Assembly (NCBI GenBank): GCA_043766615.1
Contig: JAYUHW010000039.1
Coordinates: forward strand, 12,449 to 76,448
Direction: 5' to 3'
Length of the DNA stretch: 64,000 nucleotides
From: Fibrobacteria bacterium
GTDB taxonomy: Bacteria > Fibrobacterota > Fibrobacteria > UBA11236
Position 1 is the first letter of the stretch. Each line of letters starts with the position of its first letter. Both the position numbers and the translations under genes were made by a program. The notes beneath the pieces are model-generated. The model worked only from the letters and a program-made list of their open reading frames with translations. It did not search any database and was not told the DNA's origin. This document shows, piece after piece, positions 7,930 to 64,000 of the stretch.

Positions 7930-8365
7930 GGTTTATATCCTTTTTTAGATTTTCCGAGGCAGCTTTTACTGCTGTGGATAAGAAGTTATACGAGCTTCAT
8001 TTCAATTGTATTATCGTGCTGTTTATTTTCAGGACACAGTTCGATTACAAATCTGAATAGACGCGTAGGAACATTTTTAACACTTAGTTACAGGATTTTA
8101 TTCATAATGTTTCCTCCGGAGTTTTGGACTTACTGAAAAGTGTATATCGTGATTAAAGCTGCATCCCACCCTAATTCAACATGCATTCATATTTCCGATT
8201 CGACTTTATGTCAGAGGGATAGAAAAAAAATATGAATCGAAACAAAAACGAAATATTTGGGTTGGAAATTTCATTTAATTGTAATCAAATAGAAATATAA
8301 TCTACGATTTTCTGAAACTACCGAAAGTTAAGGTTTAACAAAACCCAGCGCTGCAAGGAAAATAT

Positions 8366-9592
8366 ATGAAGTGGACACTACTGTTTTTGATCAGCTTGAA
8401 CATACCGATTTCTGAAATCCATGCCCAAGGAACATGGTATCTTCCCGGCCCCAATGGGAAGAGTATTATTCCTTATTCCGGATGTTTTATCGATGCTCAA
8501 ACGGGATTCGCAGTCAAGAATCCAAATCGACTCGATACTGCCGATGCGATCCAAAAAACTATTGATGGAGGAGCCACCTGGACATCCTTGTCCAGCGGTC
8601 CTGCTATTCCGCTACGGTCTATCCATTTTCCCCGTTATAATCTTGGATTCGTGATGGCGGCTAATGGAACAACCTTGCTCAAAACCAAAGACGGTGGAAT
8701 GCACTGGGATCGATGGGAGGCGGATCAACACTTGGATAATATCCGGTTCATGAGTGATAGCATTGGCTATGCCTTGCCCGATCGAGGTGGCTTCTTGAAG
8801 TCCGTTGACGGAGGGAAAACCTGGAAAACAATTTCCTTGGGAGGAGTGCAACCCGATTATTTTTATTTTGGCACGGAAAGAGACGGTTTTATTGTTCCCC
8901 GCAACACTAGGGTTTCTTCAGATAGCAGCCTTGCGAAAACAAAAGATGGGGGAGCGACTTGGACGTGGATCTCGGGAGTCCCAAAACTGGAAGAGATGGC
9001 CTTTCTGAATTCGGATAGTGGATTTGCCACTGGATCTCAAACCATGACCGCTAGCTCACAAAATGGCTTACCCCAAGTCATCAAGGGTGTTTACAAAACC
9101 ACGGATGGAGGCAAGACATGGAAGGTTGTACTGAGCAACCGGGTGGAAGAAACCGCCCCATTCTGGGAATACCAAAGGCCGGTCACACTCTCCTCAACTC
9201 TGGGTTATGTACTCGCCAACAAGGCAAGTAATTCCGGCCCTTCCCTAGGTTCCAGGATTATGAAAACCGAAAATGGGGGAATATCCTGGACCATCGACTA
9301 TGAAACATCGGATATGCACCTTTTCAGTCTTCAGTTTCCGGAAGTAGGAACTGGGTTTGCAAAGGGTTCTGTGGTGCTAGGAAATGCGGATTTAGATAGG
9401 GCGGTCCTGATTAGGTATAGAGTGAATCTAGTCACCTCGGTTATGCCTCAGAAACATTCATTGCCAATCTTGCGAATAGGAAAAGGAAGGTTCACCTATG
9501 GTGACCATACAGATTTTAACGCTGCGGGACGCTCCCTATCCTCGTCCACTTCATCACCCAAAGCTATACCCTTCACGGCAATAATCCCATGA
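8366..9592 (+). CDS. secreted BNR/Ycf48-like repeat protein
   Basis: 408 aa. Signal peptide, then repeated BNR-type motifs DGGATWT, DGGKTWK, DGGMHW. Confidence 0.7.
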   Translation: MKWTLLFLISLNIPISEIHAQGTWYLPGPNGKSIIPYSGCFIDAQTGFAVKNPNRLDTADAIQKTIDGGATWTSLSSGPAIPLRSIHFPRYNLGFVMAANGTTLLKTKDGGMHWDRWEADQHLDNIRFMSDSIGYALPDRGGFLKSVDGGKTWKTISLGGVQPDYFYFGTERDGFIVPRNTRVSSDSSLAKTKDGGATWTWISGVPKLEEMAFLNSDSGFATGSQTMTASSQNGLPQVIKGVYKTTDGGKTWKVVLSNRVEETAPFWEYQRPVTLSSTLGYVLANKASNSGPSLGSRIMKTENGGISWTIDYETSDMHLFSLQFPEVGTGFAKGSVVLGNADLDRAVLIRYRVNLVTSVMPQKHSLPILRIGKGRFTYGDHTDFNAAGRSLSSSTSSPKAIPFTAIIP

Positions 9593-9637
9593 CTATTGTG
9601 GCGGCCTAGGTTTGTGATTTCCAAGCTCCGAGCGGGT

Positions 9638-11473
9638 CTAAGTTGTTTTGAAAACAAAAGGTGGGCAAGCAAGCTCAATGTTCCCGGTCTCCACGTCTAG
9701 ACGGCAGGCACTCCTTCGGGCTTTTCCACTGGTGGTTTTAGGAAGCCCAAAAGGCCGAAGACAATACCAGGCTGCAAGTTGAATATCGTGTTTTTCTGAA
9801 ACTATTCCCCGGACCTTTGTCGCTAGAGCTAACCAAGTTTCGTCCGTTAGTGGCATGCGAATTTGCTCACGTTCAATTTCCGATACCAAGGCTAAGTTTT
9901 CCTGTCCATTCACGAGTATGGAAATTGCGGCAGATCCATTTTTACGAATCATGGGGTGCGATTGCTCCACGCTGCGTTCAATATCCTGAGGATAGTGATT
10001 CCGACCACGAATGATGATGAGATCCTTCATGCGGCCCGTGATGAATACTTCCTTTTTGGTTAGGAACCCAAGGTCTCCAGTGCGAAGAAAAGGACCTTCA
10101 CCGTTTGAAGTCCGGGCCTGAAATTGGGCTTCAGTTTCCATCGGCTTTCCCCAATAACCTTGGGCGATATGCGGCCCTTTGATCCAGATTTCCCCTAGCT
10201 TGTTTTCACCTTGATCCGTTTGTGTGTCGGGATCAACGATCAGAATATCTGATCCATTTGGCGCAAAGCCATTGCTGACGAAAACGGTTGCGTCCGGGTC
10301 TGATGGCATAGATGTTTCAATACGATTTTCACGAAGGGCTTTGGAAGAAATGCTTAGACGAGGTGAACTATTTTGGGCGTCACCGCCGGACGTGATCAAG
10401 GTCGTTTCCGCCAGGCCATAGCAAGGATAGAACGCGCTTTGATTGAAACCATAAGGGGAAAAGGTTTTGGAAAAAGCGTCCATGGTAAGTGCGCGGATGG
10501 GTTCAGCTCCAGTGAAGGCCAGCTTCCAGGAGGATAGATCAAGTCCTTCAGAAATTCCTTTAGCCGCTGCTTCGACGCAGAGGTCATAACCGAAGTTAGG
10601 ACCACCGCTCGTCGTGATTTTGTGTTTTGAAATGGACTGTAACCATTTTAGCGGCCTTTGTAGGAAAACCAAGGACGGCATAAGGAAGCATGGCGCACCA
10701 AGATAGAGCGGTTGCAGAAGGTTGCCGATGAGACCCATATCATGGTAAAGGGGTAACCAGCCTAGAACGCGTGTTGATTCATCATGCTTGAAATACTGTT
10801 GTATCATCCATTGGTTCTGAAGGATATTACCGTGACTGACGGCCACTCCCTTTGGCTCCGAAGTAGAACCGGAAGTGTATTGCAGAAAGGCTATGGTACT
10901 GGGTCCGATCGCGGGCCGAAGCCAACTTTCGGCCATGGAGGCATAATTGGAGGGCAAGTCCATGTCAGATCGCGACCAGGCCATCTTTTCAAGGATGGGA
11001 TGGGTAGGCAATTGTCTTTGGATTAAATGCCAAAGGGAATCGCAGGTGAGCGCCCCGGAGATTTGCGCATCCACGGCCAATCCCCGTAAATGGTCTGGTG
11101 CACGATTGGGTCGCGGAGGATAAGCAGGTACTGCGATCAGACCCGCATAAAGGCATCCAAAGAATCCGCAGACAAATTCCAGACCGGGAGGATAAAGCAG
11201 CAGGACTCGATCACCAGCCTCCAATCCCATGCGGGTCAGCATATAAACGGCCAAGGCTCGGGCACGAAGATCCAAGCCGAAATAGGAGATGGTTCCATCC
11301 AAATTTCCAGAAGGCGCCACTTCGAGTCCATCGGCCAGCCAACTATAGGCTGAACCTCTGGGATTCAAGCGGGCTCGCAGCTGTAGCAGATCCACCAAAG
11401 TCGAGGGTAACTCGGTGCGGGTGAAAGGATATTCAGACCACAAAATCAAGTTCTCCATCAGCATAGCTGACAT
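9638..11473 (-). CDS. fatty-acyl-AMP ligase (FAAL-type adenylating enzyme)
   Basis: AMP-binding motif YTSGSTSEPKGV. FAAL-like N-terminus TLVDLLQLRARLNPRGSAYSWL. Start moved to internal ATG (about 11473) to avoid about 135 nt overlap with upstream gene. ORF track gives 9638..11569. Confidence 0.85.
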   Translation of the reverse strand: MSAMLMENLILWSEYPFTRTELPSTLVDLLQLRARLNPRGSAYSWLADGLEVAPSGNLDGTISYFGLDLRARALAVYMLTRMGLEAGDRVLLLYPPGLEFVCGFFGCLYAGLIAVPAYPPRPNRAPDHLRGLAVDAQISGALTCDSLWHLIQRQLPTHPILEKMAWSRSDMDLPSNYASMAESWLRPAIGPSTIAFLQYTSGSTSEPKGVAVSHGNILQNQWMIQQYFKHDESTRVLGWLPLYHDMGLIGNLLQPLYLGAPCFLMPSLVFLQRPLKWLQSISKHKITTSGGPNFGYDLCVEAAAKGISEGLDLSSWKLAFTGAEPIRALTMDAFSKTFSPYGFNQSAFYPCYGLAETTLITSGGDAQNSSPRLSISSKALRENRIETSMPSDPDATVFVSNGFAPNGSDILIVDPDTQTDQGENKLGEIWIKGPHIAQGYWGKPMETEAQFQARTSNGEGPFLRTGDLGFLTKKEVFITGRMKDLIIIRGRNHYPQDIERSVEQSHPMIRKNGSAAISILVNGQENLALVSEIEREQIRMPLTDETWLALATKVRGIVSEKHDIQLAAWYCLRPFGLPKTTSGKARRSACRLDVETGNIELACPPFVFKTT

Positions 11474-12560
11474 GACGGAAACAGGCTTCCTGAGAAGCAG
11501 ATGGCGGGAGCCCGGGATGATTGGGGCTCGCCATAAAACGAAAAAATGCAGATTGGAGCCAATAGCCATGCCGCCTAAGATGCTTCCTCCAAGGTGACGG
11601 TTGACTGGAGGCTAGGCAATGGATGACCTGAGCTTTTTGCATTCGGAATGTGGCTTCAACGGCTTGGAGCAGGGCCGTGGTGGCATTCGGCTGGTCGGGC
11701 CGGGCTAAAAGATCCACCAGAAACCCCCGACGTAAGCCTCGCTTTTCCGCCAGGCGTGTCACCGCGTAGCCGACCAACGTCTCTCCATTGCGGGCTAACA
11801 AGATTTGGTAACTGAATCCCGGACATTTCAAAAAACGCCAGCGGAGAAATCGTCTATCTCGCTGAGTCATTAAACTCAGGCCGCGGCCAGGAACATTTGG
11901 AACAAGACCCTGGTGAACAACGCAGGCCCATAAATCATCGCATTCCTCCGGGAAGTCGGTTGCTTCCTTGATGGAAATGTCTTGATAGGTGGGTAATGAA
12001 AATCGCAGGGACAATTCCACCAGCATCCAGATGGGAGAAAAAACGGTTAGAATGGGATGCCAAACTTTGGGCCGCAGAGCTTGGATATCAAGGATCCTTG
12101 TATAAATTGCCGGCTGCCCCAAGTCCTTGCTCCCAAGATGCTTCCAAAGTGCAGCGGAAGATTTGTTTGGCATTCCGATCAATAGCTTTGGTAAATTGAC
12201 CATGGTCTTGGCGAGTGGAATGCCAATCCCGCGATGGGCCGGATGAACCAGGAAATTAAGGACGCAGAACATGGGAATTTCCTTCCCTTGCCATAGTCCC
12301 GGCGTGGGAAATGCTGAGAGGAATCCAATTACCTTACGATTGGATTCTGCGACTAGTAAAATAGGTGGTTCAGAAAAAGGATGATCTATGAGTAACCAAT
12401 TCCATCTTTCTTCAAAAGCCTGGCCCATGGATGGCCCAAAGGTTTCCGAAAACAAAGCAAGCACCGCGCCCTTGTCTGATGGACGAAATTCTCTGACCAA
12501 ACCGGAGGCTCGGGCATCGCCTGGCATGGGAGCCACCAAATCACCGAGGGTAGGATTCAC
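11433..12560 (-). CDS. GNAT-fold acyltransferase (FemAB/N-acyltransferase-like), function unknown
   Basis: 375 aa. GNAT-like core (VIGFLSAF…LVHPAHRGIGI). 4-nt ATGA overlap with upstream ACP gene. Confidence 0.6.
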   Translation of the reverse strand: MNPTLGDLVAPMPGDARASGLVREFRPSDKGAVLALFSETFGPSMGQAFEERWNWLLIDHPFSEPPILLVAESNRKVIGFLSAFPTPGLWQGKEIPMFCVLNFLVHPAHRGIGIPLAKTMVNLPKLLIGMPNKSSAALWKHLGSKDLGQPAIYTRILDIQALRPKVWHPILTVFSPIWMLVELSLRFSLPTYQDISIKEATDFPEECDDLWACVVHQGLVPNVPGRGLSLMTQRDRRFLRWRFLKCPGFSYQILLARNGETLVGYAVTRLAEKRGLRRGFLVDLLARPDQPNATTALLQAVEATFRMQKAQVIHCLASSQPSPWRKHLRRHGYWLQSAFFRFMASPNHPGLPPSASQEACFRHVSYADGELDFVV

Positions 12561-12919
12561 GTTGAGGCTGAAGTGGAAACAGAAACGGGTTTCTGATCTT
12601 GACTTGTGCCTACTGATAAACCCGCTTCAACAGCCAGTTGATCGGAAAGTTCCATGACGTTGGGAAATTCCCACATGATGGTTGGAGAAAGCTTTAGTTT
12701 CATCCAATCCTCCAAGTCGGCCGAAAATTGGACGGCCTGCATGCTGTCGAATCCAAGTTCGTTAAATGGACGGGCGGGATCCAAAGACTCAGGAGATATG
12801 GAAAGGGATTTTGCGAGGTGAGTCACAACAAAATTCCGAATATCCTCTACGTTAACAGGACCGGGTAGTCGCTTGGCTTTTGTGGTGAAAATGGCGCTGA
12901 TCTTGCCTGACAAATTCAT
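12557..12919 (-). CDS. acyl carrier protein (extended N-terminus)
   Basis: 120 aa. Phosphopantetheine attachment motif LGFDSMQAVQF. Confidence 0.8.
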   Translation of the reverse strand: MNLSGKISAIFTTKAKRLPGPVNVEDIRNFVVTHLAKSLSISPESLDPARPFNELGFDSMQAVQFSADLEDWMKLKLSPTIMWEFPNVMELSDQLAVEAGLSVGTSQDQKPVSVSTSAST

Positions 12920-12943
12920 GAGACTGCCTCTTGAGTTTAGCGG

Positions 12944-13927
12944 TTAAAGTTCAATGATACCGGCCGAGTGCTTGGCCTTGGCGATAGCGGACGGGGACGG
13001 TGTCTTTACATTCCAAACTAAGCCACAAATGCGTAAAATGCGGATCACGTCGGCGGCGAAATCGGGTTCCCACCAACGGACGCGATGGTTGGCGGAATTG
13101 GGAAAGGCATGATGATTATTCTGGAGACCTTCACCGAAAGCGACCACGGCAACAAAATAGTTATTGCAACTTCGATCACGTGTCGCAGCGGCAAAGGGAC
13201 GGGTTCCGAACATATGGCTGATTGACCCCACGAACCATAAGGCATGATCCACCAGGCATATACGCACGATGCCGCCCCAAAGCAATCCATATAGGGCGCC
13301 AATCCAATTTCCCGTTGCCATCCAAGCTATCAAGGTTGGAATGACTAAACCTAGGGACAGCCAAAGGAAGTATGTGCGGTGCATGAAAAACAAACGGCGA
13401 TCGCGAAGTAAGTCTGGTGCAAAGTGAGCCCAATTGGTGATTTCCTTTGACAGCATCCACCGGATATGTCCGTACCAAAAACCCTGCAACTCGCGCTTCC
13501 ACCCCTTTCCCTTGACCAGGTTCGGAGAATGGGGGTCCCCTGGGCCATCGCTATGGCGGTGGTGGCGGCGATGAACGGCCACCCACCAGAACAAAGGACC
13601 CTGACCGGCCATCGATCCCAATATGGCTAGGCCGATACGCATGGCCGAACTTGTTTTAAATGAGTTATGCGCAAAATGTCGGTGGAATCCCACATTGATC
13701 CCGAGCATGGTCAAGCAATAAAAGCTAATGAATAAAATAAATTCGAGATTCGAAATACCCCTGTAAAAGAGCGAAGCAATGGCGTAAACGGTAGCCAGGA
13801 ATGGGAGTGTGATCACGGTACCGGCGGTTAAAAGAATATTTCGGTGGGCCTTGGGGCTAGCAATGCTTACCGGCACTGGCCCCCGTTGGCTTACGGGGCC
13901 GGATTCTTGGATATCTACAATACTCAT
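12944..13927 (-). CDS. membrane fatty-acid desaturase (Delta9 acyl-CoA/acyl-lipid desaturase family)
   Basis: Three His boxes: HRHFAH, HRRHHRHSD, HNNHHAFP. Multiple TM segments. Confidence 0.85.
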   Translation of the reverse strand: MSIVDIQESGPVSQRGPVPVSIASPKAHRNILLTAGTVITLPFLATVYAIASLFYRGISNLEFILFISFYCLTMLGINVGFHRHFAHNSFKTSSAMRIGLAILGSMAGQGPLFWWVAVHRRHHRHSDGPGDPHSPNLVKGKGWKRELQGFWYGHIRWMLSKEITNWAHFAPDLLRDRRLFFMHRTYFLWLSLGLVIPTLIAWMATGNWIGALYGLLWGGIVRICLVDHALWFVGSISHMFGTRPFAAATRDRSCNNYFVAVVAFGEGLQNNHHAFPNSANHRVRWWEPDFAADVIRILRICGLVWNVKTPSPSAIAKAKHSAGIIEL

Positions 13928-13937
13928 AGCATAGCCT

Positions 13938-14963
13938 TCAAGTTACGTACTCGCGAACATCAGTAACTTTTGCAGCTTGGCGGCGGGCCTCAATGGCGGA
14001 AGCTGTGGGCTTTTTCAAATGATGGACTAAGCCTACAAATTGGAGACCTTTCACGATCATGCCGGAGCAATCAAGCTGCCACCATGCGAATTGGTTATCG
14101 GCGGTGGAGGGAAAGGCATGGTGATTATTATGCCAAGAACCTCCCAAAGAAGGCAGTGCAAGCCATGCGACATTTGCCGCAACACCCTTGGCAGCAAAAG
14201 GACGGCTTCCGAAAATATGGCAGGCACTGTTGACGGCCCAGACTGCATGATGAACAAGAAAAATTCGCGCCAATCCTCCCCAGATAAAACCTTCCCAAGC
14301 CCCGGCCAAAGCATTCCCTTTAAGACTATACTCCACTAGAGCTCCAATGGACGCCGGCAAAGCTAACCCCATGAAAACCCAAATACCGTAAGTTTGGTTG
14401 AGAGAGAATAACCGTCGATCCTTAAGCAAATCAAGGGCGAAGCGATTCCAATCCACTTGATCAGGCTGGATGAGCCATCCGCAATGTCCATGAAAAAATC
14501 CCCGCACTCTTCCAAGCATTCCCGGACCCATGCTTTGCGGCGAATGCGGGTCACCTTGTTCATCGCTAAAAGCATGATGCTGTCTATGCGTGGCCGCCCA
14601 GAAAAAGACTGGACCTTGAGCGGCCATGGATCCAAGGACGACAAACAGATCGCGTAAGGGCGTAGTATAAGCGCCATGTGAGATAAGTCGATGGAATCCA
14701 GCCTCAATTCCGAATAGGGTGGAAAAATAAAGAGTTCCAAGGAGCATGAATTTCCAGGGAACAAATCCTGTTAAAACAAGATCCGCTCCTGCCAAAAGGA
14801 AACCCAGGGTAGGAATCGTGATCACGGCAAGGGCAATCCGATATCGGATCCGGCTCGTATTCAGCCTATCTTGATCAGCCGCCCGTGGCTTAACGGGGCT
14901 AGTCAAGTGGGCAACAACTTGGGGTGGCGTCATGGTTGCCTTTTCAATAACCCTTGGCGTCAT
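13938..14963 (-). CDS. membrane fatty-acid desaturase (Delta9 acyl-CoA/acyl-lipid desaturase family), paralog of the neighbour
   Basis: His boxes HRLISH, HRQHHAFSD, HNNHHAFP. 10-nt spacing to downstream desaturase. Confidence 0.85.
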   Translation of the reverse strand: MTPRVIEKATMTPPQVVAHLTSPVKPRAADQDRLNTSRIRYRIALAVITIPTLGFLLAGADLVLTGFVPWKFMLLGTLYFSTLFGIEAGFHRLISHGAYTTPLRDLFVVLGSMAAQGPVFFWAATHRQHHAFSDEQGDPHSPQSMGPGMLGRVRGFFHGHCGWLIQPDQVDWNRFALDLLKDRRLFSLNQTYGIWVFMGLALPASIGALVEYSLKGNALAGAWEGFIWGGLARIFLVHHAVWAVNSACHIFGSRPFAAKGVAANVAWLALPSLGGSWHNNHHAFPSTADNQFAWWQLDCSGMIVKGLQFVGLVHHLKKPTASAIEARRQAAKVTDVREYVT

Positions 14964-15205
14964 AGGATCGAGGTCTCCGTCGATTTGACAATTAAAAATT
15001 GTCCGTAAATAGTCCCTGCTGGTCTTTGAGCGTGATTCGCCAAGGACAAAGAAGTCTTATATCTAACTCAAAATCTATTGTCGGATGTGTCTGAATTCAA
15101 ATAGAAATAGGATTGAAAATCATTTGAATACAAGGGAGGTTGAAATGAAAAGGAAATCTCTACTGTATTCAATCGAAATTAAAAGTCACCATATTTTTCT
15201 GTAAA
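14964..15205. promoter_or_regulatory. AT-rich divergent intergenic region (likely promoters for desaturase operon on minus strand and for the pseudogene on plus strand)
   Basis: 242 nt non-coding, AT-rich, between start of 13938..14963(-) and 15206(+). Confidence 0.35.
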
Positions 15206-16861
15206 ATGCTTATATCTGCAAGCGCCATTTTTGAACTAAGCCAATGGGAGTCCTTCATGAAAGTACCAAATCACTTAGTTCCAATACTTTCGGCGGCTGC
15301 AATGATTTCATGCTTTAACATTGGCGTTTTACATGCTCTACCCATAATAAATATTCCCGTTAAATTCCATACTGGCACCGTTCTCGCTGAGCCGATTGTG
15401 GTGAATACTCGGCTAAACAAGAATAGGATTTGGATTTTGAATGGGTTTACCATAGTCAAGGCGGGCGTTACTCTGACCATTGAGGCGGGCACCACCATCC
15501 AGGTCAGTACAACCAACCGTGCGACTTTGCTTGTCGATCGCGGAGCCTGGCTTATCGCTGCTGGCACAAAAGACCAGCCAATTACCTTTCGAAGTGAAAT
15601 TGGATCGGAATGCGGAACCTGGGGCGGAATAGTTCTCTTGGGCAGGGGAATCAGCAACCAAGGGGGTAACCTTCAGTACGAAGCTTTGGATTGGGCCAGA
15701 TTTGGTAACAATAATAATGACGATTCCTCCGGAGTGCTGACCTACTTGCGTCTTGATTGACTAGGATTTCCAATTGCCATTGACCGGGAATTAAATGGAA
15801 TAACTTTTTGCGCCGTGGGCCGTAGAACCGTGATTAACCATATCCAAGTTAATCGAGCAGACGACGAAGGTATGGAATTCTTTGGAGGCGCAGCTAATGC
15901 CGACCACCTTGTAGTGACCAATCAAACGGACGATGCCTTTGATATCGATCATGGTTATGGCGGCACAATTAATTATATGATTGGCATTCAAAGGACCGAA
16001 GCACCAAGACCAAGACAACCCGGCATCAGCTTGGCTTTTTAACCCGTCGGTGATTTCGGCATAGAATGCAGCAGCTCACAAGGCGGAAACAGACCCCTTT
16101 CAAACCTTCATTGGTCGTATATCACTTTGATCGACAATGGTAGGTATGATGGGGCGATTGATTTCAAGGAAGAATGCGCGGGAACCTATGAGAAAATGGT
16201 TGTCGTGGCAGGAGGAGATTCTTTAGACAGCGCATCTGGCTGGGGCTTCCGGATCCAGGGCGATCTCACTGCCGCCAATATTGCTGCGCCCACGCCCCTA
16301 TTGGAACTCAAAGATGTTTTCCTAACCGGCAAATGGAAGAAATTATATCAATTCTCAGGACTCACTGCTTGTTGTACCGAATTGGAAAACCAGATTGGAT
16401 TTCTCTCAAAAACTCTCAATGACAAGGTTAAAAATTATCCTTACGCAAGTGAAAACAGCTATGGCCTATATCAGGATTTATCACCTTCAAATCCTGATAC
16501 CATTACTATTCCCCCGGTCGATCCAAGCGTTCGCTATCTCAGTTTCCAGTCGGCGGGTGGTCGGGATTCACTGGGAGCGCCACGAATATACCGGCCTCTT
16601 GATTTCGATATGGCAATTTTCCAAAGTGCGCCGTTAAATGGACGACTCAATATCTCTGCCTGCCAGTCCTTTCTGGATGATGTGGAATACAGCTCGGTGC
16701 TTCAATCCAATATTTTGCCATGGGGAATTATTCTGTCCAATGGAGATCGGGTTTACCCTGTTCTTAGCCAGAGTGATTTCAAACTTGGTCCGGTGGGAGT
16801 CCAAAAAATACGTCTTAAATTAGTGCTCATGTTTCGTCGCGCACTGTATTACCATACTTAG
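15206..16861 (+). pseudogene. nonsense-disrupted, C-terminally truncated paralog of the N-terminal beta-helix domain of the giant protein at 56427..60056
   Basis: Three consecutive ORF-track pieces (15206..15760, 15815..16042, 16127..16861) are all in the same frame. They are joined by in-frame TGA (15758) and TAA (16040). Translation through the stops aligns with residues about 20-470 of 56427..60113 (YLRLD*LGFPIAID vs YVRLDGPGFPIAVD; LAF*PVGDF vs LPFEPVGDF). Nucleotide identity is about 90% in the spot checked. Confidence 0.75.
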
Positions 16862-17083
16862 GCCCAAAAATCCCACGCTCGCATGCCTTTCCTGATTTGT
16901 TCAGGTACAGCTACGTGCGACTTTTCTGGCCCCATATCTTGCCCTTCAAATACAGGTGTCATAACGCTCACCCTACCCACACTTCGTATTAAACTGTAAT
17001 GTCGGAACAAGCACTTAAATGATATTCCAATTCAAAAATTATTTTTTCCATTCGCGTCTCTAATACTATTGAGTGTGCTGAGT

Positions 17084-17839
17084 CTATTTAGGCTGCCGAT
17101 TCAATTGATCTACGGTATCCTTAATCGCGAGGTAGTGGAAATGCATTTCCTCGGAGGAAAGCGCGCGATCCCAGAGCTTGAGATCGTCCATGGCAGATCC
17201 AGGGGACATATACCCATTCAATCCACCATTACCATATCCATATCCGACGCGGAGTCTGAATACCAGATTGGGCAGGTAGGGCTTAGTTGGCACAGCCATC
17301 ATCTCTTCGCCGTCGATATACACCTTGTCAAATCCTGCATCGTTGAGGACTCCGGCGACAATGTGCACTGTGCCGCTTGCCAAGGCCACCGGCGAAATGC
17401 ATTCGTTCCAAATCGGGGAAATATCCTGGTTTCCGGTGGCGAATTCCAAGTTGCGATTCTCATTGAAGAAAAGCGAATAACCCCGGGCCAGGGACAGTCC
17501 CATATCGTGCCCGTAAACGTTATATTGGGCGATGAATGCACTCGCTTGGGGAACCGATACAACCGCTTCAATGGTGAGACTAGGGAAATTGAAAGCGCCT
17601 TTGGAACTGATCACTTCAGCTTCAAAGCCAGTGTCGGCGAAGCGAATGGCTTTGCCGGATACCCCCGTGATGGAAACTAACGCCTCGGGCTTTTGCAGTA
17701 TTACCAACTTATGATTGCCCGAACCTGAATCATCTGCAAAAACCCCCGCGTTGCCTGAGTCGAATGACCAATGCCCTACTGGGCCTTGTGCCCCTGCAAT
17801 TGCCCAAATCGCCAATACCAGTATGATTGAAATCCGCAT
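17084..17839 (-). CDS. secreted LamG-like (concanavalin A-like lectin/glucanase fold) protein
   Basis: Start placed at MRISIILVLAIWAIAGAQG signal peptide. Jelly-roll LamG-like sequence (…LKLWDRALSSEEM). Confidence 0.6.
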   Translation of the reverse strand: MRISIILVLAIWAIAGAQGPVGHWSFDSGNAGVFADDSGSGNHKLVILQKPEALVSITGVSGKAIRFADTGFEAEVISSKGAFNFPSLTIEAVVSVPQASAFIAQYNVYGHDMGLSLARGYSLFFNENRNLEFATGNQDISPIWNECISPVALASGTVHIVAGVLNDAGFDKVYIDGEEMMAVPTKPYLPNLVFRLRVGYGYGNGGLNGYMSPGSAMDDLKLWDRALSSEEMHFHYLAIKDTVDQLNRQPK

Positions 17840-18023
17840 GTTTGTCTCCAAATAAAAGTGAGTGTGATTAATAAATCTATTTCTATGCAGGGACAGTAAC
17901 GGTGACAAACTTGTTACCGCAAAGTTGCAATTCTAAGCAATGTGATATTAACGAAAAAGGGCTTCGATTGACCTATTCGCCGATTTAAAAAATGAAGTCC
18001 GCTCTTACCTGAGCGTCCGTGCC

Positions 18024-35329: not shown

Positions 35330-35388
35330 ATTAAGATTCGTGTCCAGAAAATCCCATATCACTGATGAGGAAAAGAAAGACTGAAAGC

Positions 35389-36699
35389 ATGAGAATCCTT
35401 TATTTTAATTATCAGATTTCCTCATTCGCCTCCATCGTGCGTTCACTGGAGTATGCTAAGGGGTTAACTAACGAGGGGCATGAAGTTGCGCTTTGCTACA
35501 TACATCCCCTATTCCATCCACCGGAAACCTATTATCAACTCATCACTGCTTATGAATCACCTCTGTTAAAGGTCCGTTATCCTTCCCGTAATCCCACTGC
35601 AACTATCCAAGCCAATGACGCTCGTAAAGATCCGATTAAGGGAAAAGTCGTGGACGGGATGCCGACTTTTTGGCGTCTCGTCCGGCAAATTCTCGCTTCC
35701 ATTAAATACATACCATCGGAACTTCGTTTGGTTGGCCAGTTTCGGCCTGACATTTTGCTGGCGCGTTCGGACCCAACTATTTCAACCAGCGTAACATCAT
35801 GGTTACGTAAGCTGCCTCTCGTGCTCGAAACCGATGGGCCACTGGAAGAGCTTGACAAGTATTGGGGATTGAATTCTCGCTGGCTTCTGCTTTTGGATTC
35901 CTGGCGTGCACGCCGGGCAGATGCCTTACTTTATATCAGCGAACCTTGCCGCCAATTATGGTTGCGCAAGCGTGTCTCCAGGGAGAAGCTCTTTTATACC
36001 CCCAATGCAGCCCACCCAGATCGCTTTCGTCCCTTGGAATCCTCTGCACGGCGGAGATTGCGAGCTAAGTTTGGATTAGAGGGACGCAAGGTCATAGGAT
36101 TTTCAGGAATCCTGCGCCCCTGGCATGGTGTGGATAACTTGCTAGCGGCTGCACTTCCCATCCTTGAGGAAGATCCTGATGTGCGGATTCTCTTCATCGG
36201 CTCAAAGTACGATGCTGAGGTTCTTGAACGCTGCCATGTCCCCGAGCCCATTGGCCGAGAAAAATTGGTGTTCACGGGACCCGTCCCGTATATGCAGATG
36301 GGGGACCACATCGACTTGGCAGACTGCATCGCTTTGCCATATCCTCCATCGGATTTCTTTTACTTTTCGCCCATGAAACTTTTCGAAGGCATGTGTTTGG
36401 GCAAGGTGATGGTGGCTCCACGCATGGAGCAGATCGAGGAAATGCTCCAGGGGCTTGCTTCCCCTGTTCTCTATGATCCCGCAGAAGGGGTCACAGCCTT
36501 ACGTCGATGCCTCAAGGAAGGTTTGCGTCGCGGCCTCTCCGCACCCTTCGAAACCGTTGCCGGTGCCGATGCTCGCGCGCGAATCGAAAATGCACATACT
36601 TGGGCACATCGAGGTAAGGTCGTGGCGAAAGCCTGCGAATATGCTGCTCGACGTAATCAAGGGCAGTCGGGGGGAATCACGCAATCTATTTTGAACTGA
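35389..36699 (+). CDS. GT-B fold glycosyltransferase (GT4-like)
   Basis: About 437 aa. C-terminal FSPMKLFEGMCLGKVMVAP nucleotide-sugar binding region. Start placed at MRILYFN. ORF track begins at 35365. Confidence 0.65.
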   Translation: MRILYFNYQISSFASIVRSLEYAKGLTNEGHEVALCYIHPLFHPPETYYQLITAYESPLLKVRYPSRNPTATIQANDARKDPIKGKVVDGMPTFWRLVRQILASIKYIPSELRLVGQFRPDILLARSDPTISTSVTSWLRKLPLVLETDGPLEELDKYWGLNSRWLLLLDSWRARRADALLYISEPCRQLWLRKRVSREKLFYTPNAAHPDRFRPLESSARRRLRAKFGLEGRKVIGFSGILRPWHGVDNLLAAALPILEEDPDVRILFIGSKYDAEVLERCHVPEPIGREKLVFTGPVPYMQMGDHIDLADCIALPYPPSDFFYFSPMKLFEGMCLGKVMVAPRMEQIEEMLQGLASPVLYDPAEGVTALRRCLKEGLRRGLSAPFETVAGADARARIENAHTWAHRGKVVAKACEYAARRNQGQSGGITQSILN

Positions 36700-37640: not shown

Positions 37641-37838
37641 GCTCTTTACTTCGACCGGAGCCTGGCTGGGCTTGGTAGCGCGGATGTTACTATGGGAGTT
37701 CCGCGTAACCTCATGTCCCTCATCTGCTGCTCCTTTGCCTTACTCCAAGGAACGTACGATGGAGGCGAATGAGGAAATCTGGTAATTGAAATAGAGAATC
37801 CTCATGGGTCTAGCCTTGCTTTTCCCGGGTGTCCCATG

Positions 37839-52135: not shown

Positions 52136-52229
52136 AATTCTCTTAGGGTGTAAGTCATGAAAGGATTGCGACCCAAAAAACAACTGCTATAAACTAGTTC
52201 TGCTAGAACTTTTTATTGTTACAGGTGTG

Positions 52230-55708: not shown

Positions 55709-55791
55709 ATTACAAATCTCAGTTTAGAGAAAGTTTTTTTAATAAAAATTCCAAATCTATTAACTCAGCCATGAAAACAGCACAAAGGGTA

Positions 55792-56391: not shown

Positions 56392-56426
56392 TTTCCAATA
56401 AATCCTTTCAAGCCAATTCATTCGAT

Positions 56427-59400
56427 TTAATTCCCAGTGCTAAAGACTACACGGGCAGAGCGGGACATTTTACCGTTGGATAGGCGCACGATATGGACTC
56501 CGTGCAAATTACCCATGGCAATGGAATTTTGTCCTTGCTTCAGATTCACTTCACGAGTACCCATGAAATGGCCTGACACACTCCAGATGGCTATTTTGAC
56601 CGATCCAAAACCTGAAGATTGGATGACCAAGTTCTGGCCATGGCTCGCAAAGACATGAATACCATTAAAGTCGCGAAGCGGAATGGCAATAGCCACGGGC
56701 ATTGACTTGATTACCACGACCAGTTCCGATTTTGTCTCCTTGGGATCCCGGCTATTTTTGTCCTTCGCTCTTGCGACATAAGTATAAGTTCCCGCAGCTT
56801 TTCCAGTAAGTGGAACCGTCAGGGTTCCATTTGTGCTCGTCCCCAAAACCACTCCATTAAGTGTGATTTGAATGGTATCGATTCCGTCTTGATCCGAGGC
56901 TAAGGCAACTAGACTGAAGGAACTAGGCGCATAAAGCGTGTCTGCGCCACCGCGGATGAAGCTCATAGTGGGCGCGATATTGGGAGCAGCGGCATTTACA
57001 TTTACCACCAAGGAATCGATTTTTACTAAAGGATCATTGATGTGTTTATCCTTGGCCCTGACAATATAAGTATAAGTGCCAGCGTCTAAGTTAGCCACGG
57101 GGACGACCAAATTAATCGAAGTGCCGGTGGCTAGTACTTTACCGTTCAAGAGAACTTGCAAGGAATCAATTCCATCCACATCCTCAGCGTTTGCCAATAA
57201 CTGAAAGTTGGCAGGTCCGATTAAAGTTTCCGCACCAGTGCGTATGAGCGTGACCTTGGGAGCAATATTAGCGGCTGCAGCATTCACGGTTACTATCAAG
57301 GTTTTGGTGGTCACCTTCGGATCCGTTGCATGCTTATCCTTTGCGCGGACAGTATAGGTATAAACGCCCGCAACCATCTTAGTAATTGGGACTACCAAGC
57401 TAACTGATGAGCCGCTGGCTACTACTTTGCCGTCCAAAAGAACTTGCAAGGTATCAATTCCATCCGCATCATCTGCACTGGCAACCAAGGTGAAATTGGC
57501 TGGACCGACTAGGCTATCGTTCGAGGCTAATTTCAAATCCACAGTAGGCCCTGAAGCGTTCACTAGGGCTGGAGGATCAAAGACTGTCACGGTGAGTACT
57601 TGCGTCACGGTTTTAGGGTCCGTGGCATGATTATCCGTGGCTTTAACCGTATAAGTATAGGTACCGGGCACTTTGCCGGAGATGGATACTGCAAGGCTAC
57701 CAGTATTGGATCCGCCCAAAACCGTCGTGCCTTCTAAGATCTGCAAGCTGGCAATGGCGCCATCCGGATCCGAAGCAGTGGCATTGAGGGTAAAGCCTGC
57801 TGGCGCTATGAGTGTTTCGCCAGTGCGGGTTAGGTTAACGATCGGAGCTTTATTCGGCGGAGGTACTTCAACAGAGACGATCAAGTCCTTCGAGGAGGTT
57901 TTAGGTTCGGTGGCATGGTTATCCGTCGCCTTAACCGTATAGGTATGATTACCTGCCGTTACGCCTGAAACAGGTACCGAAAGACTTCCGGTAACCGAGT
58001 TGCCCAGTACAGTTGATCCCTCAAGGATTTGTAAATTGGAAATGACTCCATCGGAATCTGAAGCTGTGGCATTGAGGGTAAAGCCTGCGGGAGCTACTAG
58101 AATAGTTTCACCGATTCGACTTAAGTTAACTACTGGAGCTTTATTAGGAGGGGGTGCTTGAACAACCACGATTAATTCTTTTGAGGAAGTTTTTTGATCC
58201 GCGTTGATATCCTTGGCTTGAACCTTATAGGTATAAATGCCTTGAGCTAGGTTTGTGACGTTAACGCCTAAGCTTCCAGTGGCATTTGAACCCAAAATCG
58301 TGCTGCCTTGAAGAATTTCCAAAGTAGCGATGCCATCCAAATCAGAGGCCGTTGCATTGAGTGTGAAGCTAGCTGGGGCAACGAGGTTATCACTTCCGGT
58401 GCGGGTTAAGTCTACCGTTGGGGCGGGATTGGCCACTACGACAACAAGATTTTGGGTTTGGGTTAAAGGATTAAGGGGATGCTTATCCTTGGCGCGCACC
58501 GTATAGGTAATTGACCCGGAGGCGGCATTGGTTACATCAAAGGAAACCGAACCCGTGGTGCTGGATGCCAGAACGGTTACTCCTTGGAGGATCTCTAAAT
58601 TTGCGATTCCTTCTGGATCCGTAGCGGTAGCGTTCAAGGTGAAGGACGCTGGTGCGCTAAGGTCGGCGCCAGTGCGAGTCAGAGTGACTACAGGTGCTCC
58701 TGCATTAGGTGGAACAGGATCGTCGCCAAGGGGGAAGTCCATAGTGCCGTCAAGGGTCCAACCCTTGTACCAGAGATCCCCATCCACGATTGCACCGGCC
58801 TTGGCTGCAATAATATCTGGATTCGAGGGTGAAAGGTCTTTGTAAAGGCCGAAGCTATGCGTAGTTGCATAGGGATAATTCTTGATCTTGGCATTCATTA
58901 CGTCCTTAACCAAATTGACTTGATTCAACGAGTCTGTACCTTTGGCGCTAAGCCCAGCGAATTCATATTGCTTTTTCCAATTGCCGGTTAAGAAAACGTC
59001 TTTTAATTCCAATGCGGGCGTAGGTGCGGTAATATTGGCCGCGGTTAAATCACCCTGGATCCGGAAACCCCAGCCGGAGGCGCTGTCTAATTTTGCGCCA
59101 CCGGCCACGATGACCATTTTCTCATAGGTTCCGGCGCATTGCTCTTTTAAGTCAACCGCACCATCATATCCACCATTGTCGATCAAGGTGAGATGCGACC
59201 AATGCAGGTTTGACAAAGGTCGGAGATCGGATTGGGAGCTACTGCATTCTATTACGAAATCACCTACGGGTTCAAAGGGCAAGGTGCTGCCGGGTTGTCT
59301 TGGTCTGGGAGCTTCCGTCCTTTGAATGCCAATCATATAATCGATAGTGCCGCTATATCCATGATCGATATCAAAGTTATCATCCGTTTGCTGGGTCACG

Positions 59401-60056
59401 ACAAGGTGGTCGGCATTGACCGATCCTCCGAACCATTCAAAGCCATCGTCGTCGCCGCGATGGACCTGTACGTGGTGCATGACGGTCTTGCTACCAACGG
59501 CGCAAAGGGTGACACCGTTCAATTCGCGGTCCACGGCAATGGGGAAGCCCGGGCCGTCGAGTCGCACATAGGTCAAAACACCCGATGAGTCGTCATTCTT
59601 GTTATTACCGAACCGGGCCCAGCCTAGCGCTTCATACTGAAGGTTTCCACCTTGGTTGCTGATACCCTTGCCCAGGAGCACGATACCACCCCAGGTTCCA
59701 CGTTCGGATCCGATTTCTCCGCGAAAGGTGATGGGCTGGTCTTTAGTGCCGGCGGCGATAAGCCAGGCTCCGCGATCGACAAGCAAAGTCGCACGGTTGG
59801 CTGTACTGGCCTGGATGGTGGTGCCTGCCTCAATGGTCAAAGTAACGCCGGCCTTGACTATGGTATAACCATTCATGATCCAAAGCGTATCTTTGGATAA
59901 GAAAGTGTTTACGGCAATGGAATCGGCGGGAATGGTTCCCTCATGTGCTTTGACGGGGATATCTTTCATTGGGAGCGCCCAAGAAAGTCCAGCGCCAAGG
60001 CTAGCTGCAAAAGCTAGCGGCTGCAGGAGGGATTTAAGGAAATTTGATTTTTTCAT
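56427..60056 (-). CDS. giant secreted protein: N-terminal parallel beta-helix (lyase/adhesin-like) domain + 7 tandem Ig-like repeats + T9SS-type C-terminal sorting domain
   Basis: Start at MKKSNFLKSLL signal peptide (ATG 60056). Repeats of about 93 aa (…LTRTGxxxLxAPAxFTLNATAxDxDGIxxLxILxG…TYTYTVxAKDxH…). C-terminal VKIAIWSVSGHFMGTREVNLKQGQNSIAMGNLHGVHIVRLSNGK resembles Por/T9SS CTD. Confidence 0.85.
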   Translation of the reverse strand: MKKSNFLKSLLQPLAFAASLGAGLSWALPMKDIPVKAHEGTIPADSIAVNTFLSKDTLWIMNGYTIVKAGVTLTIEAGTTIQASTANRATLLVDRGAWLIAAGTKDQPITFRGEIGSERGTWGGIVLLGKGISNQGGNLQYEALGWARFGNNKNDDSSGVLTYVRLDGPGFPIAVDRELNGVTLCAVGSKTVMHHVQVHRGDDDGFEWFGGSVNADHLVVTQQTDDNFDIDHGYSGTIDYMIGIQRTEAPRPRQPGSTLPFEPVGDFVIECSSSQSDLRPLSNLHWSHLTLIDNGGYDGAVDLKEQCAGTYEKMVIVAGGAKLDSASGWGFRIQGDLTAANITAPTPALELKDVFLTGNWKKQYEFAGLSAKGTDSLNQVNLVKDVMNAKIKNYPYATTHSFGLYKDLSPSNPDIIAAKAGAIVDGDLWYKGWTLDGTMDFPLGDDPVPPNAGAPVVTLTRTGADLSAPASFTLNATATDPEGIANLEILQGVTVLASSTTGSVSFDVTNAASGSITYTVRAKDKHPLNPLTQTQNLVVVVANPAPTVDLTRTGSDNLVAPASFTLNATASDLDGIATLEILQGSTILGSNATGSLGVNVTNLAQGIYTYKVQAKDINADQKTSSKELIVVVQAPPPNKAPVVNLSRIGETILVAPAGFTLNATASDSDGVISNLQILEGSTVLGNSVTGSLSVPVSGVTAGNHTYTVKATDNHATEPKTSSKDLIVSVEVPPPNKAPIVNLTRTGETLIAPAGFTLNATASDPDGAIASLQILEGTTVLGGSNTGSLAVSISGKVPGTYTYTVKATDNHATDPKTVTQVLTVTVFDPPALVNASGPTVDLKLASNDSLVGPANFTLVASADDADGIDTLQVLLDGKVVASGSSVSLVVPITKMVAGVYTYTVRAKDKHATDPKVTTKTLIVTVNAAAANIAPKVTLIRTGAETLIGPANFQLLANAEDVDGIDSLQVLLNGKVLATGTSINLVVPVANLDAGTYTYIVRAKDKHINDPLVKIDSLVVNVNAAAPNIAPTMSFIRGGADTLYAPSSFSLVALASDQDGIDTIQITLNGVVLGTSTNGTLTVPLTGKAAGTYTYVARAKDKNSRDPKETKSELVVVIKSMPVAIAIPLRDFNGIHVFASHGQNLVIQSSGFGSVKIAIWSVSGHFMGTREVNLKQGQNSIAMGNLHGVHIVRLSNGKMSRSARVVFSTGN
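56710..58660 (-). repeat. seven tandem about 280-bp coding repeats (Ig-like domain array) inside 56427..60056
   Basis: Repeat units visible in translation. Boundaries approximate. Confidence 0.7.
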
Positions 60057-60197
60057 TGTGAAGGTCTCCCATTGTTTAATTTTAATTGAATTCAGTTCGG
60101 TCACTTGGGGCACACCATTGGGGCCCGCAAAATAGGGACTGAGAGATAGGAAGCCCGTGTTACCGTCAAGCCTATTAATTGTTTCAACCGCGTTCCA

Positions 60198-63581: not shown

Positions 63582-63748
63582 GGCACGGAAAACGATAGGA
63601 GAAAGGATTTTCAATCCCGTTACTAATCGATTACACTGAATTTCATTATTTAGAATCAACTATCGTGCATAAAAAAAGGGACCGGAGGCCTAAACCCCCG
63701 ATCCCGAAAAATTTTCAATCAAGTGATTGCAATCAAATGATTGGCAAT

Positions 63749-64000
63749 TTAGGGTTGGGTAACCCACCATGTGGTTTCGTCGATGACCTGGTTGGTTCCA
63801 TTAATCACGAGTTTAACGCGCAAGCTATGCTTTCCGGGAGCGCCGAAGACGGCGCCAGTTTGACCGGCAGCTTTATAAACGCGATCGCCATTTCCGAGAA
63901 CGGTTGGGAATGGAAAAATGCCGGATTGGAAAACAGTGCTGACGTCTGCGCCATCCAGAAAGGCCTGGGAAGCAGCAACATTGATAGCTCCGTTTAATCC
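63749..64000 (-). CDS. partial CDS (C-terminal end; gene starts beyond window end), unknown function
   Basis: Manual minus-strand translation open from 64000 to TAA at 63751..63749: …GLNGAINVAASQAFLDGADVSTVFQSGIFPFPTVLGNGDRVYKAAGQTGAVFGAPGKHSLRVKLVINGTNQVIDETTWWVTQP*. Listed + ORF 63665..63997 is antisense to it. Confidence 0.45.
   Translation of the reverse strand, partial: GLNGAINVAASQAFLDGADVSTVFQSGIFPFPTVLGNGDRVYKAAGQTGAVFGAPGKHSLRVKLVINGTNQVIDETTWWVTQP

Follow-up and report, generated by a model that had tools for sequence, protein, structure and literature searches.

Is a disrupted relative of a surface-protein gene an ordinary pseudogene, or a silent cassette from which the expressed gene is varied? 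Arrangements of the latter kind are known from Neisseria pilE/pilS, Borrelia vlsE/vls and the "functional pseudogenes" of Anaplasma msp2 (PMC4534519, PMC3899283, PMC2632889). The question is raised by two related genes in a 64,000-nt stretch of DNA from a Fibrobacteria bacterium (the whole of which is referred to here as the window): a plus-strand locus, A, with in-frame stop codons, and an intact gene, B, on the opposite strand. Their features are listed in Table 1, together with the end of a third gene, C.

Table 1. Features of A, B and C in the window
Feature	Position	Strand	Remarks
Intergenic region 5' of A	14964..15256	+	AT-rich; conserved SD-like motif CAATGGGAG at 15242-15250
Pseudogene A	15257..16861	+	534 codons in a single frame; signal peptide, Beta_helix_4 and tail; two nonsense codons
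Predicted signal peptide of A, MKVPNHLVPILSAAAMISCFNIGVLHA	15257..15337	+	Aligns with the B signal peptide; cleavage site predicted from sequence only
Beta-helix domain of A (PF28492, Beta_helix_4)	15338..16504	+	Paralogous to B codons ~28-416
Putative most recent gene-conversion tract	15438..15558	+	Partner 59755-59875 (-); 7 mismatches in 121 nt; 46-nt exact run at 15513-15558
In-frame stop 1, TGA	15758..15760	+	Opposite a Gly codon (GGC) of B; also in Logan contig L084
In-frame stop 2, TAA	16040..16042	+	Opposite a Glu codon (GAA) of B; also in Logan contig L084
In-frame deletion of ~23 codons in A	16499..16510	+	Removed the family-conserved linker motif AGAIVDGDLWYKGWTLPGT; from alignment with B, P0001, P0002, P0003, P0004 and P0006
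A-type C-terminal tail domain	16505..16861	+	No homology to B; orthologous to the P0001 and P0002 tails
Gene B	56427..60056	-	Intact, 1209 aa; signal peptide, Beta_helix_4, seven Big_7 Ig-like repeats, T9SS type A sorting domain
Gene C, 3' end	63752..64000	-	Cut by the window edge; C-type tail domain

Results

Architecture and upstream region of A

In a BLASTP comparison, window positions 15230-16504 (+) matched codons 1 to ~435 of 56427-60056 (-) with 73% identity over 425 aa (E = 0), confirming the paralogy proposed by the first-pass annotation. Also as annotated, B encodes Ig-like repeats (Big_7) and a T9SS C-terminal domain (TIGR04183; 26.9 bits against a cut-off of 23, residues 1140-1204), and A has neither; the T9SS type A sorting domain (TIGR04183/PF18962) was likewise absent from P0002, an intact homolog of the A type. 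The homology to B stops at 16504, and 16505-16861 encodes a different domain. The copy is thus not the truncated piece of B that it had been taken for. It also keeps an RBS-like motif, a start codon and a signal peptide, and is best described as a full-length gene of an architecture different from that of B.

A is flanked by desaturase genes (to 14963) and a LamG gene (17084-17908). The upstream region is AT-rich, as previously stated, with a GC content of 36% compared to 48% for the window. The start assigned earlier, ATG 15206, was also chosen by a gene caller (L001). It is probably wrong, since ATG 15257 follows the conserved motif CAATGGGAG and 15206 is an in-frame ATG upstream of it. The motif in A aligns with one that lies just 5' of the start codon both in B and in its ortholog from L003, so that ATG 15257 (MKVPN) is the likely start of A. 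Sigma-70-like promoter matches around A were not above chance (6 found, 4.4 +/- 1.8 expected), and neither were terminators.

The tail of A adds 118 codons of its own C-terminal domain after the beta-helix. No Pfam or NCBIfam family matched it. Alignments identified the P0001 and P0002 tails as its orthologs and the tail of gene C as a distant relative; in a tblastn search, A residues 477-541 (counted from ATG 15206) matched window positions 63997-63803 with 45% identity (E 3e-13). When A and B were run by tblastn over the whole window, the matches were confined to A, B and the tail of C. The full-length ortholog of C on L003 encodes 583 aa, consisting of a distant beta-helix protein followed by a tail. 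The architecture of beta-helix plus tail is still intact in another Fibrobacteria MAG (P0002). The A locus shares no synteny with the intact A-type genes P0001 and P0002, and positional orthology is therefore unproven.

Precomputed matches to PF28492 (Beta_helix_4) covered all 113 homologs as well as the 75-aa fragment of A encoded by 15815-16042 in L084, and the AlphaFold model of P0002 is a parallel beta-helix with a pLDDT of >90 for residues 30-450; its tail domain was modeled at low confidence, from a thin alignment. The best PDB matches of P0002 were CBA120 TSP2, GH87 glucanase, AlgE4 and Pel9A, all of them weak (TM 0.2-0.3, 8-13% identity). An acidic cluster, DDDG-E-FGG ... DD--D, is invariant in the family. 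The beta-helix genes adjoin an exopolysaccharide locus, which makes up the 40 kb between A and B, and B itself sits in a gene cluster that is conserved in other Fibrobacteria MAGs. Scanning genome contigs (GTDB representatives) with A gave no match, and scanning genome contigs with the family alignment gave only relatives at 62% identity or less. No match was obtained in two JGI metagenome contig scans or in exact-protein look-ups of a 184-aa ORF, a 244-aa ORF and the 209-aa neighbour of B.

In-frame stops and their support in independent contigs

The claim that 15206-16861 remains in one reading frame, broken only by TGA 15758-15760 and TAA 16040-16042, was borne out. Each stop had been ascribed to a single G-to-T change. 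This fits the second, which is one G-to-T step from the GAA of B; at the first, the GGA-to-TGA change had been presumed, and the corresponding codon of B is GGC.

We considered whether the stops could have arisen as errors of sequencing or consensus calling, or through a chimeric misassembly of A at the repeat that it shares with B, the gene being intact in the cell. The DNA is metagenomic, A contains a 46-nt exact repeat with B, and Logan contigs break at this repeat. However, the independent Logan contig L084 (SRR23617214) corresponds to window 15529-16915 at 100% identity, includes both stops and is recorded in 2 samples. The Logan contigs retrieved were limited to 100%-identical ones, from one named sample (SRR23617214). 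The flanks of A also matched Logan contigs at 100% on both sides. Moreover, contigs ended at 15542 and 15529, as the 46-nt exact A/B run predicts at k=31, with no sign of conflict. Further signs of decay (a deleted motif, a changed invariant Asp and an accelerated tail, described below) are independent of the stops. An artefact thus seems very improbable, and the frame of A is disrupted relative to its intact homologs B and P0002. An 11-nt direct repeat (15518, 16914) had been considered as a deletion junction behind the end at 15529; it was dropped, since the 46-nt A/B repeat at k=31 explains both 15529 and 15542. Other repeats around A were short and at chance level.

Decay of A

A has lost residues that its family retains. 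D203, invariant in 69/69 family members and in B, is replaced by Glu, and A no longer has G424, W432 and W436 (conserved residues, P0002 numbering); B has these as well as every other family-conserved residue missing from A. The linker motif is gone as well (Table 1), and tblastn with P0001, P0002, P0003 and P0006 revealed no frameshifted remnants of this motif or of the C-terminal end in the other frames. In the beta-helix, A-specific amino-acid changes outnumbered B-specific ones with each of three outgroups (35:22, 42:17 and 27:13; the 42:17 ratio, obtained with L004_B, corresponds to a chi2 of 10.6). In the tail, the ratio of A-specific to ortholog changes was 24-25 to 4-5 with P0001 (chi2 12-15) and 24:7 with P0002 (chi2 9.3), the A tail evolving ~5 times faster than its orthologs. 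Lost conserved residues and accelerated change both indicate relaxed constraint. The earlier description of A as a nonsense-disrupted pseudogene is thus supported by the stops in an independent contig, the lost linker, D203E and the accelerated change.

Related accessory paralogs are disrupted in two other Fibrobacteria MAGs. The L005 paralog has a TGG-to-TGA change at a conserved Trp and a deletion of ~75 aa; the L083 paralog has a deletion of ~50 codons with a frameshift.

Divergence between A and B

The nucleotide identity of ~90% to B reported earlier was too high. Pairwise alignment revealed 74% identity over 1248 nt and 80% over a 936-nt core, no frameshift and a mosaic of divergence, in which only 15438-15558 reached 94%. 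Differences were distributed over the three codon positions as 71/41/171, and synonymous sites were saturated (pS 0.6, dS ~1.2; dN/dS 0.17); some regions combined a pS of 0.9 with a pN of 0.03-0.06. Because of this saturation the duplication must be old. The first-pass annotation had called it recent, which is unsupported, given the dS and the presence of the beta-helix plus tail architecture in other Fibrobacteria MAGs (P0001, P0002). Through most of its history the ancestral gene evolved under purifying selection.

Probable gene conversion between A and B

The synonymous divergence of A and B is unevenly distributed. In the 15438-15558 tract, pS was 0.17, compared to 0.8-0.97 in other parts, and 20 consecutive codons capable of synonymous change were identical (p = 0.001). 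Clustering of synonymous identity was significant in permutation tests (p 0.001-0.005), with p 0.002-0.005 for the window tests. Over the same codons, pS was 0.6-0.73 between B and its ortholog L003_B and in the paralog pairs of two other genomes, and low-pS tracts sat at different positions in the pair of each genome.

Trees of the two parts of the gene disagreed. In neighbor-joining analysis the beta-helix domains grouped by genome: A with B of the window at 78% bootstrap (99.8% with L003_B included), L004_B with the L005 paralog at 99% and L006_B with P0002 at 100%, while clades by architecture received 0%. Tails grouped by type: a group of the A, P0001 and P0002 tails received 100% bootstrap support and excluded the C-type tails, even those found in the same genomes. 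We note that the clade of A and B from the window has a support of 78% only, and that within-genome clustering could alternatively arise from repeated duplication of the 5' half of B and its fusion to the tail, itself a form of recombination.

The combination of beta-helices grouping by genome, tails grouping by type and clustered A/B synonymous identity points to gene conversion between the paralogs; these patterns indicate past A/B conversion of the kind called concerted evolution. The alternative is that no conversion took place, the low-divergence block reflecting nucleotide-level selection (codon or RNA constraints) and the within-genome likeness reflecting independent, lineage-specific duplications of the B 5' half fused to the tail. 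We regard this as unlikely. The block does code for the most conserved protein segment, and the bootstrap of the window pair is modest. Nevertheless, the higher pS of the same codons in other pairs argues against a general nucleotide constraint, the low-pS tracts differ in position between genomes, and, with the tails of A, P0001 and P0002 in one group at 100% support, three separate fusions would each have needed to acquire the same foreign tail. Comparison with L003_B gave no signal as to which of the two genes was the donor in the 15438-15558 conversion. A literature search on gene conversion among Fibrobacter paralogs turned up nothing relevant.

Tests for inversion, recoding and silent-cassette features

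A further reading is that A is still used, be it by read-through or recoding of the stops, as a secreted N-terminal fragment of 167 aa, or by a homologous inversion of A and B that swaps their 5' ends. The upstream motif, the ATG and the signal peptide are intact. A and B are inverted and share the 46-nt identical run upstream of both stops, so that a crossover there would place the B promoter on the disrupted A body and the A promoter on the intact B body. Yet at 46 bp the shared sequence is of marginal length for homologous recombination, and no alternative arrangement of the intervening 40 kb was seen in the sequence data examined. Systems of the Mycoplasma vsa type and shufflons combine a site-specific recombinase with short specific inverted sites; here, recombinase and integrase families were absent from the 44 ORFs scanned across the window, which holds no invertase gene either, and the sole inverted sequence common to A and B is the coding homology itself. 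The first fragment would end within the beta-helix, and the two stops differ, with no single recoding rule to cover both. Taken together, continued use of A is hardly probable. Recoding as such was rejected: TGA stands at a Gly and TAA at a Glu position, and all other long ORFs of the window use the standard code.

The first-pass annotation had further proposed that A could be a recombination donor or acceptor for B. The part of this proposal that stands is past conversion, as seen in the mosaic synonymous divergence and the discordant trees; several features that define a programmed silent cassette were looked for and not found. We examined the latter as a reading in its own right, namely, that A functions as a silent cassette, either donor or acceptor, whose programmed, frequent and unidirectional conversion into the expressed B varies the surface protein, as in pilS/pilE, vls/vlsE and the msp2 pseudogenes. 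The conversion footprints agree with it, as do the T9SS-dependent secretion of B and the fact that the accessory paralogs of the L005 and L083 MAGs are disrupted and yet resemble the B of their own genome. However, the window contains a single extra copy. Donors of the pilS type are partial copies without promoter and RBS (PMC4534519, PMC3899283), whereas A still has its ATG and signal peptide, an RBS-like motif upstream of them and a C-terminal domain of its own. Instead of a hypervariable region between conserved flanking anchors, we found divergence spread over the domain and the most similar tract coinciding with the most conserved core. A offers little amino-acid diversity, since its differences from B are mainly synonymous (dN/dS 0.17). 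Nor are the donor segments free of stops: both lie within the exchangeable region, and their transfer would inactivate B. The saturation of dS over most of the domain implies that exchange is rare. Finally, neither A nor B has specialised cis elements such as a pilE-like G-quadruplex or direct repeats bounding the cassette (the sole G4 motif of the window is at 2797-2826), no homopolymer tracts or simple repeats for phase variation were detected in either gene, and a recombinase gene is missing from the window. A programmed cassette is thus very unlikely, and nothing in the data appears to mark A as dedicated to surface variation.

Discussion

We conclude that A is probably an old paralog of B that was inactivated recently and is now a pseudogene, with a beta-helix homogenised with that of B by ectopic gene conversion, and that no dedicated variation mechanism is involved. 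Its ancestor would have encoded a secreted protein of ~560 aa, made of a signal peptide, Beta_helix_4, the conserved linker and a tail of ~115 aa. After long purifying selection this gene acquired the two nonsense codons and lost conserved residues. As the patterns of divergence suggest, RecA-type ectopic conversion has probably acted repeatedly between the inverted copies 40 kb apart, the latest putative tract measuring ~120 bp (15438-15558). The tail, which B does not share, would have had no partner to copy from and is the part that diverged fastest.

For annotation, this means that the A locus should be recorded as a pseudogene of a Beta_helix_4 plus tail protein, not as a truncated large surface protein. 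The wider value is modest. The locus offers a clean case of domain-limited concerted evolution, repeated in three uncultured Fibrobacteria genomes, in which the copies of a shared beta-helix domain stay alike within each genome in genes that end in different C-terminal modules. This has a bearing on ortholog calling, and on the assembly of MAGs, in which contigs break at identical tracts.

One broader hypothesis is that accessory beta-helix paralogs of Fibrobacteria, often inactivated (A and the L005 and L083 paralogs), are kept as a small reservoir. Segments would pass between them and the gene for the T9SS-secreted beta-helix protein, which lies beside that for a TonB-dependent receptor, with gene conversion as one route and, in the present genome, homologous inversion at the identical 46-nt core as another. 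We consider this improbable. If true, environmental bacteria would have a low-copy, pseudogene-fed means of varying or switching a surface protein, for instance as a defence against phages or grazers. Ongoing transfer into B, of which the present data give no sign, would mean that surface variation fed by pseudogenes is not confined to host-associated pathogens.

How does A compare with known systems? The fold predicted for P0002 is that of right-handed parallel beta-helix proteins such as phage tailspikes and pectate-lyase-like and alginate-epimerase-like proteins, although the structural matches are weak. With ordinary bacterial pseudogenes of surface or secreted paralogs, A shares point nonsense mutations, motif loss, faster change and the existence of intact homologs. 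It differs from them in that copying from the intact B may partly hide the decay of its beta-helix, and in that two other MAGs have homologous accessory copies with disruptions of independent origin.

As in silent-cassette systems, A is a non-expressible copy of part of a surface-protein gene located elsewhere, and there is evidence of sequence having moved between the copies. Unlike the arrays of those systems, it is a single copy in 64 kb; unlike their donors, it is full-length, from RBS-like motif and start through signal peptide to C-terminal domain, with its stops in the shared region. A and B also lack the cis elements and the variable region between anchors of such systems, and at a dN/dS of 0.17 A has little diversity to donate.

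The duplicated tuf genes of enterobacteria are an example of concerted evolution by ectopic gene conversion. Like them, A and B are dispersed inverted paralogs with mosaic tracts of low synonymous divergence and trees that group by genome. In contrast to the tuf type, one partner is a pseudogene, most of the shared domain is saturated at synonymous sites, indicating infrequent exchange, and homogenisation is limited to the one domain that A and B have in common, their C-terminal modules being different.

Two in-frame stops interrupt a complete gene

The plus-strand stretch 15206-16861 forms a single reading frame throughout, broken by two in-frame stops. Its translation (A) is 73% identical over 425 residues, with one single-residue gap near the start, to the N-terminal ~435 residues of B, the intact paralog on the minus strand. 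The paralogy, the kept frame and the two stops described by the first-pass annotation are thus real. Besides A, tblastn across the window revealed no further copy of this part of B. The nucleotide identity, estimated by eye at ~90%, was found to be lower, at 80.2% over 936 nt by blastn (15419-16354 versus 59893-58959) and 74% over 1248 nt in an ungapped codon alignment. An identity of 94% is confined to a 121-nt block that includes a 46-nt exact run, and this block is probably the source of the earlier figure. Both stops had been attributed to G-to-T changes. This fits the TAA, which faces GAA in B, a single G-to-T step apart; the TGA faces GGC and its GGA ancestor would have to be supposed.

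Homology to B stops at 16504, and the frame of A runs 118 codons further. This tail matches, at 45% identity (E 3e-13), the C-terminus of C, a beta-helix protein whose minus-strand gene spans 63752 to beyond 64000 and is cut by the window edge. It also matches P0001 and P0002 at their C-terminal ends; these two proteins are the closest relatives of A in the databases. P0002, which is intact at 567 aa and comes from a Fibrobacterota MAG, has the architecture of A: signal peptide, beta-helix (Pfam PF28492 Beta_helix_4), conserved linker and tail. Since the CAATGGGAG motif immediately 5' of ATG 15257 recurs, conserved, in front of the start codon both in B and in the B ortholog of another Fibrobacteria assembly (L003), A probably starts at this ATG (MKVPN...), followed by a signal peptide alignable to that of B. 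A is therefore not a truncated copy, as had been proposed, but a complete gene with an architecture unlike that of B.

The tail belongs to a ~115-aa C-terminal domain (..GGxx..LYRP..LNGxLN..FLDG..NGDRVY..LRLKLVL..YW.T..) common to two protein types, which matched no Pfam or NCBIfam model. Because it takes the place of the T9SS sorting domain found in B, it may itself be a C-terminal domain for sorting or anchoring, of a type not yet described.

An assembly artefact as the origin of the stops was ruled out, since both are reproduced at 100% in the Logan contig L084, which is on record in two samples and yields the same three gene-call fragments as the window. Around the 46-nt repeat common to A and B, a k=31 graph is expected to break precisely at the observed contig ends, 15542 and 15529. 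Just 3' of A, the overlap between L084 and L002 is no more than 3 nt, as expected at k=31 if a ~57-nt sequence (16886-16942) recurs elsewhere in the sample or if the graph branches between strains. No second copy of 16886-16942 was found within the window.

Positions of features in the window and in related loci
Feature	Position (strand)	Detail
A, pseudogene	15257-16861 (+)	
A stops	15758-15760; 16040-16042	TGA; TAA
A/B block	15438-15558	121 nt
A/B exact run	15513-15558	46 nt
A/B pS	codons 61-105 from ATG 15257	0.17
A/B pS	codons 121-195 from ATG 15257	0.8-0.97
A/B pS	codons 211-345 from ATG 15257	0.3-0.5
A/B pS	codons beyond 360 from ATG 15257	0.8-0.97
Tail domain	16505-16861; 63752-63997 (-)	also tails of P0001, P0002, L003_C, L004_C, L006_C
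B	56427-60056 (-)	1209 aa
B Ig-like repeats	57043-58193 (-)	
B cluster	53597-64000 (-)	also L003 4539-15876, P0003 contig
B cluster gene 1		C, beta-helix+tail protein
B cluster gene 2		TonB-dependent-receptor-like, CarboxypepD_reg/Plug, 1153 aa
B cluster gene 3		B, T9SS beta-helix/Ig protein
B cluster gene 4		~200-aa protein, no family
B cluster gene 5		~700-aa PhoX-like protein
Exopolysaccharide or O-antigen-type locus	23719-53600	~28 kb
Deacetylase pair	50807-52183; 52230-53600 (-)	
Inverted-repeat arms	35369-35453; 37741-37825	85 nt
Lipid-type cluster	8257-14963 (-)	
Logan L001	8257-15542	SRR23617214, 100% match
Logan L084	15529-16915	SRR23617214, 100% match
Logan L002	16913-24030	SRR23617214, 100% match
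L005 accessory paralog	L005 9893-12070	MAG JBDSWM01
P0001 locus	L083 682-2234	JGI 3300079877

A was long under selection and probably decayed late

By the Nei-Gojobori method, A and B differ with pS 0.60 and pN 0.18 (dS ~1.2, dN/dS 0.17), with 71/41/171 differences at codon positions 1/2/3, and some segments combine pS of at least 0.9 with pN of 0.03-0.06. The low dN/dS and these segments indicate that A was a selected, functional gene during most of the A-B divergence; the recent duplication assumed earlier is wrong.

Decay is visible in A at several sites. The 23-residue linker motif AGAIVDGDLWYKGWTLPGT, kept in B and in the homologs P0001, P0002, P0003, P0004 and P0006, is missing; an Asp present in every one of 69 family members is replaced by Glu; the conserved G424, W432 and W436 are absent, and the C-terminal end is shorter. 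Relative-rate counts of A-specific to B-specific changes in the beta-helix were 35:22, 42:17 and 27:13 (outgroups L003_B, L004_B and P0001), and the tail carries 24-25 A-specific changes versus 4-7 in orthologs (chi2 9-15). By a rough inference, the ~20 surplus amino-acid changes in A would represent a few per cent of the A-B divergence time, which agrees with two nonsense mutations arising by chance.

Lesions were also observed in other genomes. In the L005 accessory paralog, TGA replaces the TGG codon of the conserved Trp in GxWGG and ~75 internal residues are deleted, and the P0001 locus has a ~50-codon deletion, removing the equivalent of the A/B high-identity tract, and a frameshift in its 5' part. 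The gene calls of P0002 and P0003 are intact. Accessory beta-helix copies seem prone to loss (five cases).

The beta-helix domains probably evolve in concert

At synonymous sites, A and B diverge in a mosaic pattern. Among 290 same-residue, synonymously variable codons, 20 consecutive ones are identical (p = 0.001), and window tests for clustering gave p values of 0.002-0.005. Synonymous conservation at these codons was absent in the orthologs win_B/L003_B and in paralog pairs from two further genomes, which have their own low-pS tracts at other positions. In the beta-helix tree, grouping follows genome: A and B of the window join with 78% bootstrap (99.8% with L003_B added), L004_B and the L005 paralog, both from one MAG, with 99%, and L006_B and P0002, again from one MAG, with 100%, while architecture clades received 0%. 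In the tail tree, grouping follows type, with 100% support for A, P0001 and P0002; P0002 joins the C tail of its own genome in 0% of replicates. Both mosaic and trees are most simply read as showing an old A-type gene whose beta-helix has been homogenised with that of B over and over. A and B lie in inverted orientation 40 kb apart, and a crossover within their 46-nt core, producing a 40-kb inversion with swapped 5' ends, is conceivable but unsupported.

Genomic context and putative function

Among scanned GTDB representatives, the nearest loci are in Fibrobacteria MAGs (at most 62% identity). The B cluster is conserved across Fibrobacteria MAGs. B carries seven Big_7 repeats and a T9SS type A sorting domain; its Ig-like repeats are 73-77% identical at the nucleotide level (57609-57902 versus 57897-58193; 57043-57182 versus 57331-57470) and are another possible substrate for intragenic recombination.

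The locus separating A from B encodes GT2 and GT4 glycosyltransferases, Wzy_C, a Polysacc_synt flippase (Wzx), Poly_export/SLBB (Wza-like) and Wzz/GNVR-like proteins, methyltransferases and three polysaccharide deacetylases, two of them tandem paralogs (72% nucleotide identity over 540 nt). One arm of an inverted repeat (83.5% identity) makes up the 5' end of the glycosyltransferase gene at 35365-36699, and its partner is found immediately beyond the 3' end of ORF 37839-39080 on the minus strand; the repeat may be a gene fragment or recombination relic. Directly 5' of A, the lipid-type cluster encodes a fatty acyl-AMP ligase, an acetyltransferase-like protein, an acyl carrier protein and two fatty acid desaturases.

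P0002 is modelled with confidence as a parallel beta-helix (pLDDT >90 at residues 30-450). Since its fold matches, all weak, are to tailspikes, GH87, AlgE4 and pectate lyases, and an acidic cluster is invariant in the family, an activity on glycans is no less plausible than the putative "adhesin" label.

Comparison with silent-cassette systems

In silent-cassette systems, variant DNA moves unidirectionally from silent copies, which are partial, promoterless, RBS-less and usually many, into an expression site whose variable region lies between conserved anchors (PMC3899283, PMC4534519, PMC2632889). Here, in contrast, there is one copy in the 64 kb, with full gene structure; its stops fall inside the region common with B, it has few amino-acid novelties to give B, and synonymous sites are saturated across most of the domain. 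Neither a G4 motif or repeat element at A or B nor a recombinase gene within the window was found. A role of A as a programmed donor cassette is therefore very improbable. A is a real pseudogene carrying gene-conversion footprints, of an already known kind, and A and B behave as in ordinary concerted evolution, unlike the silent-cassette class.
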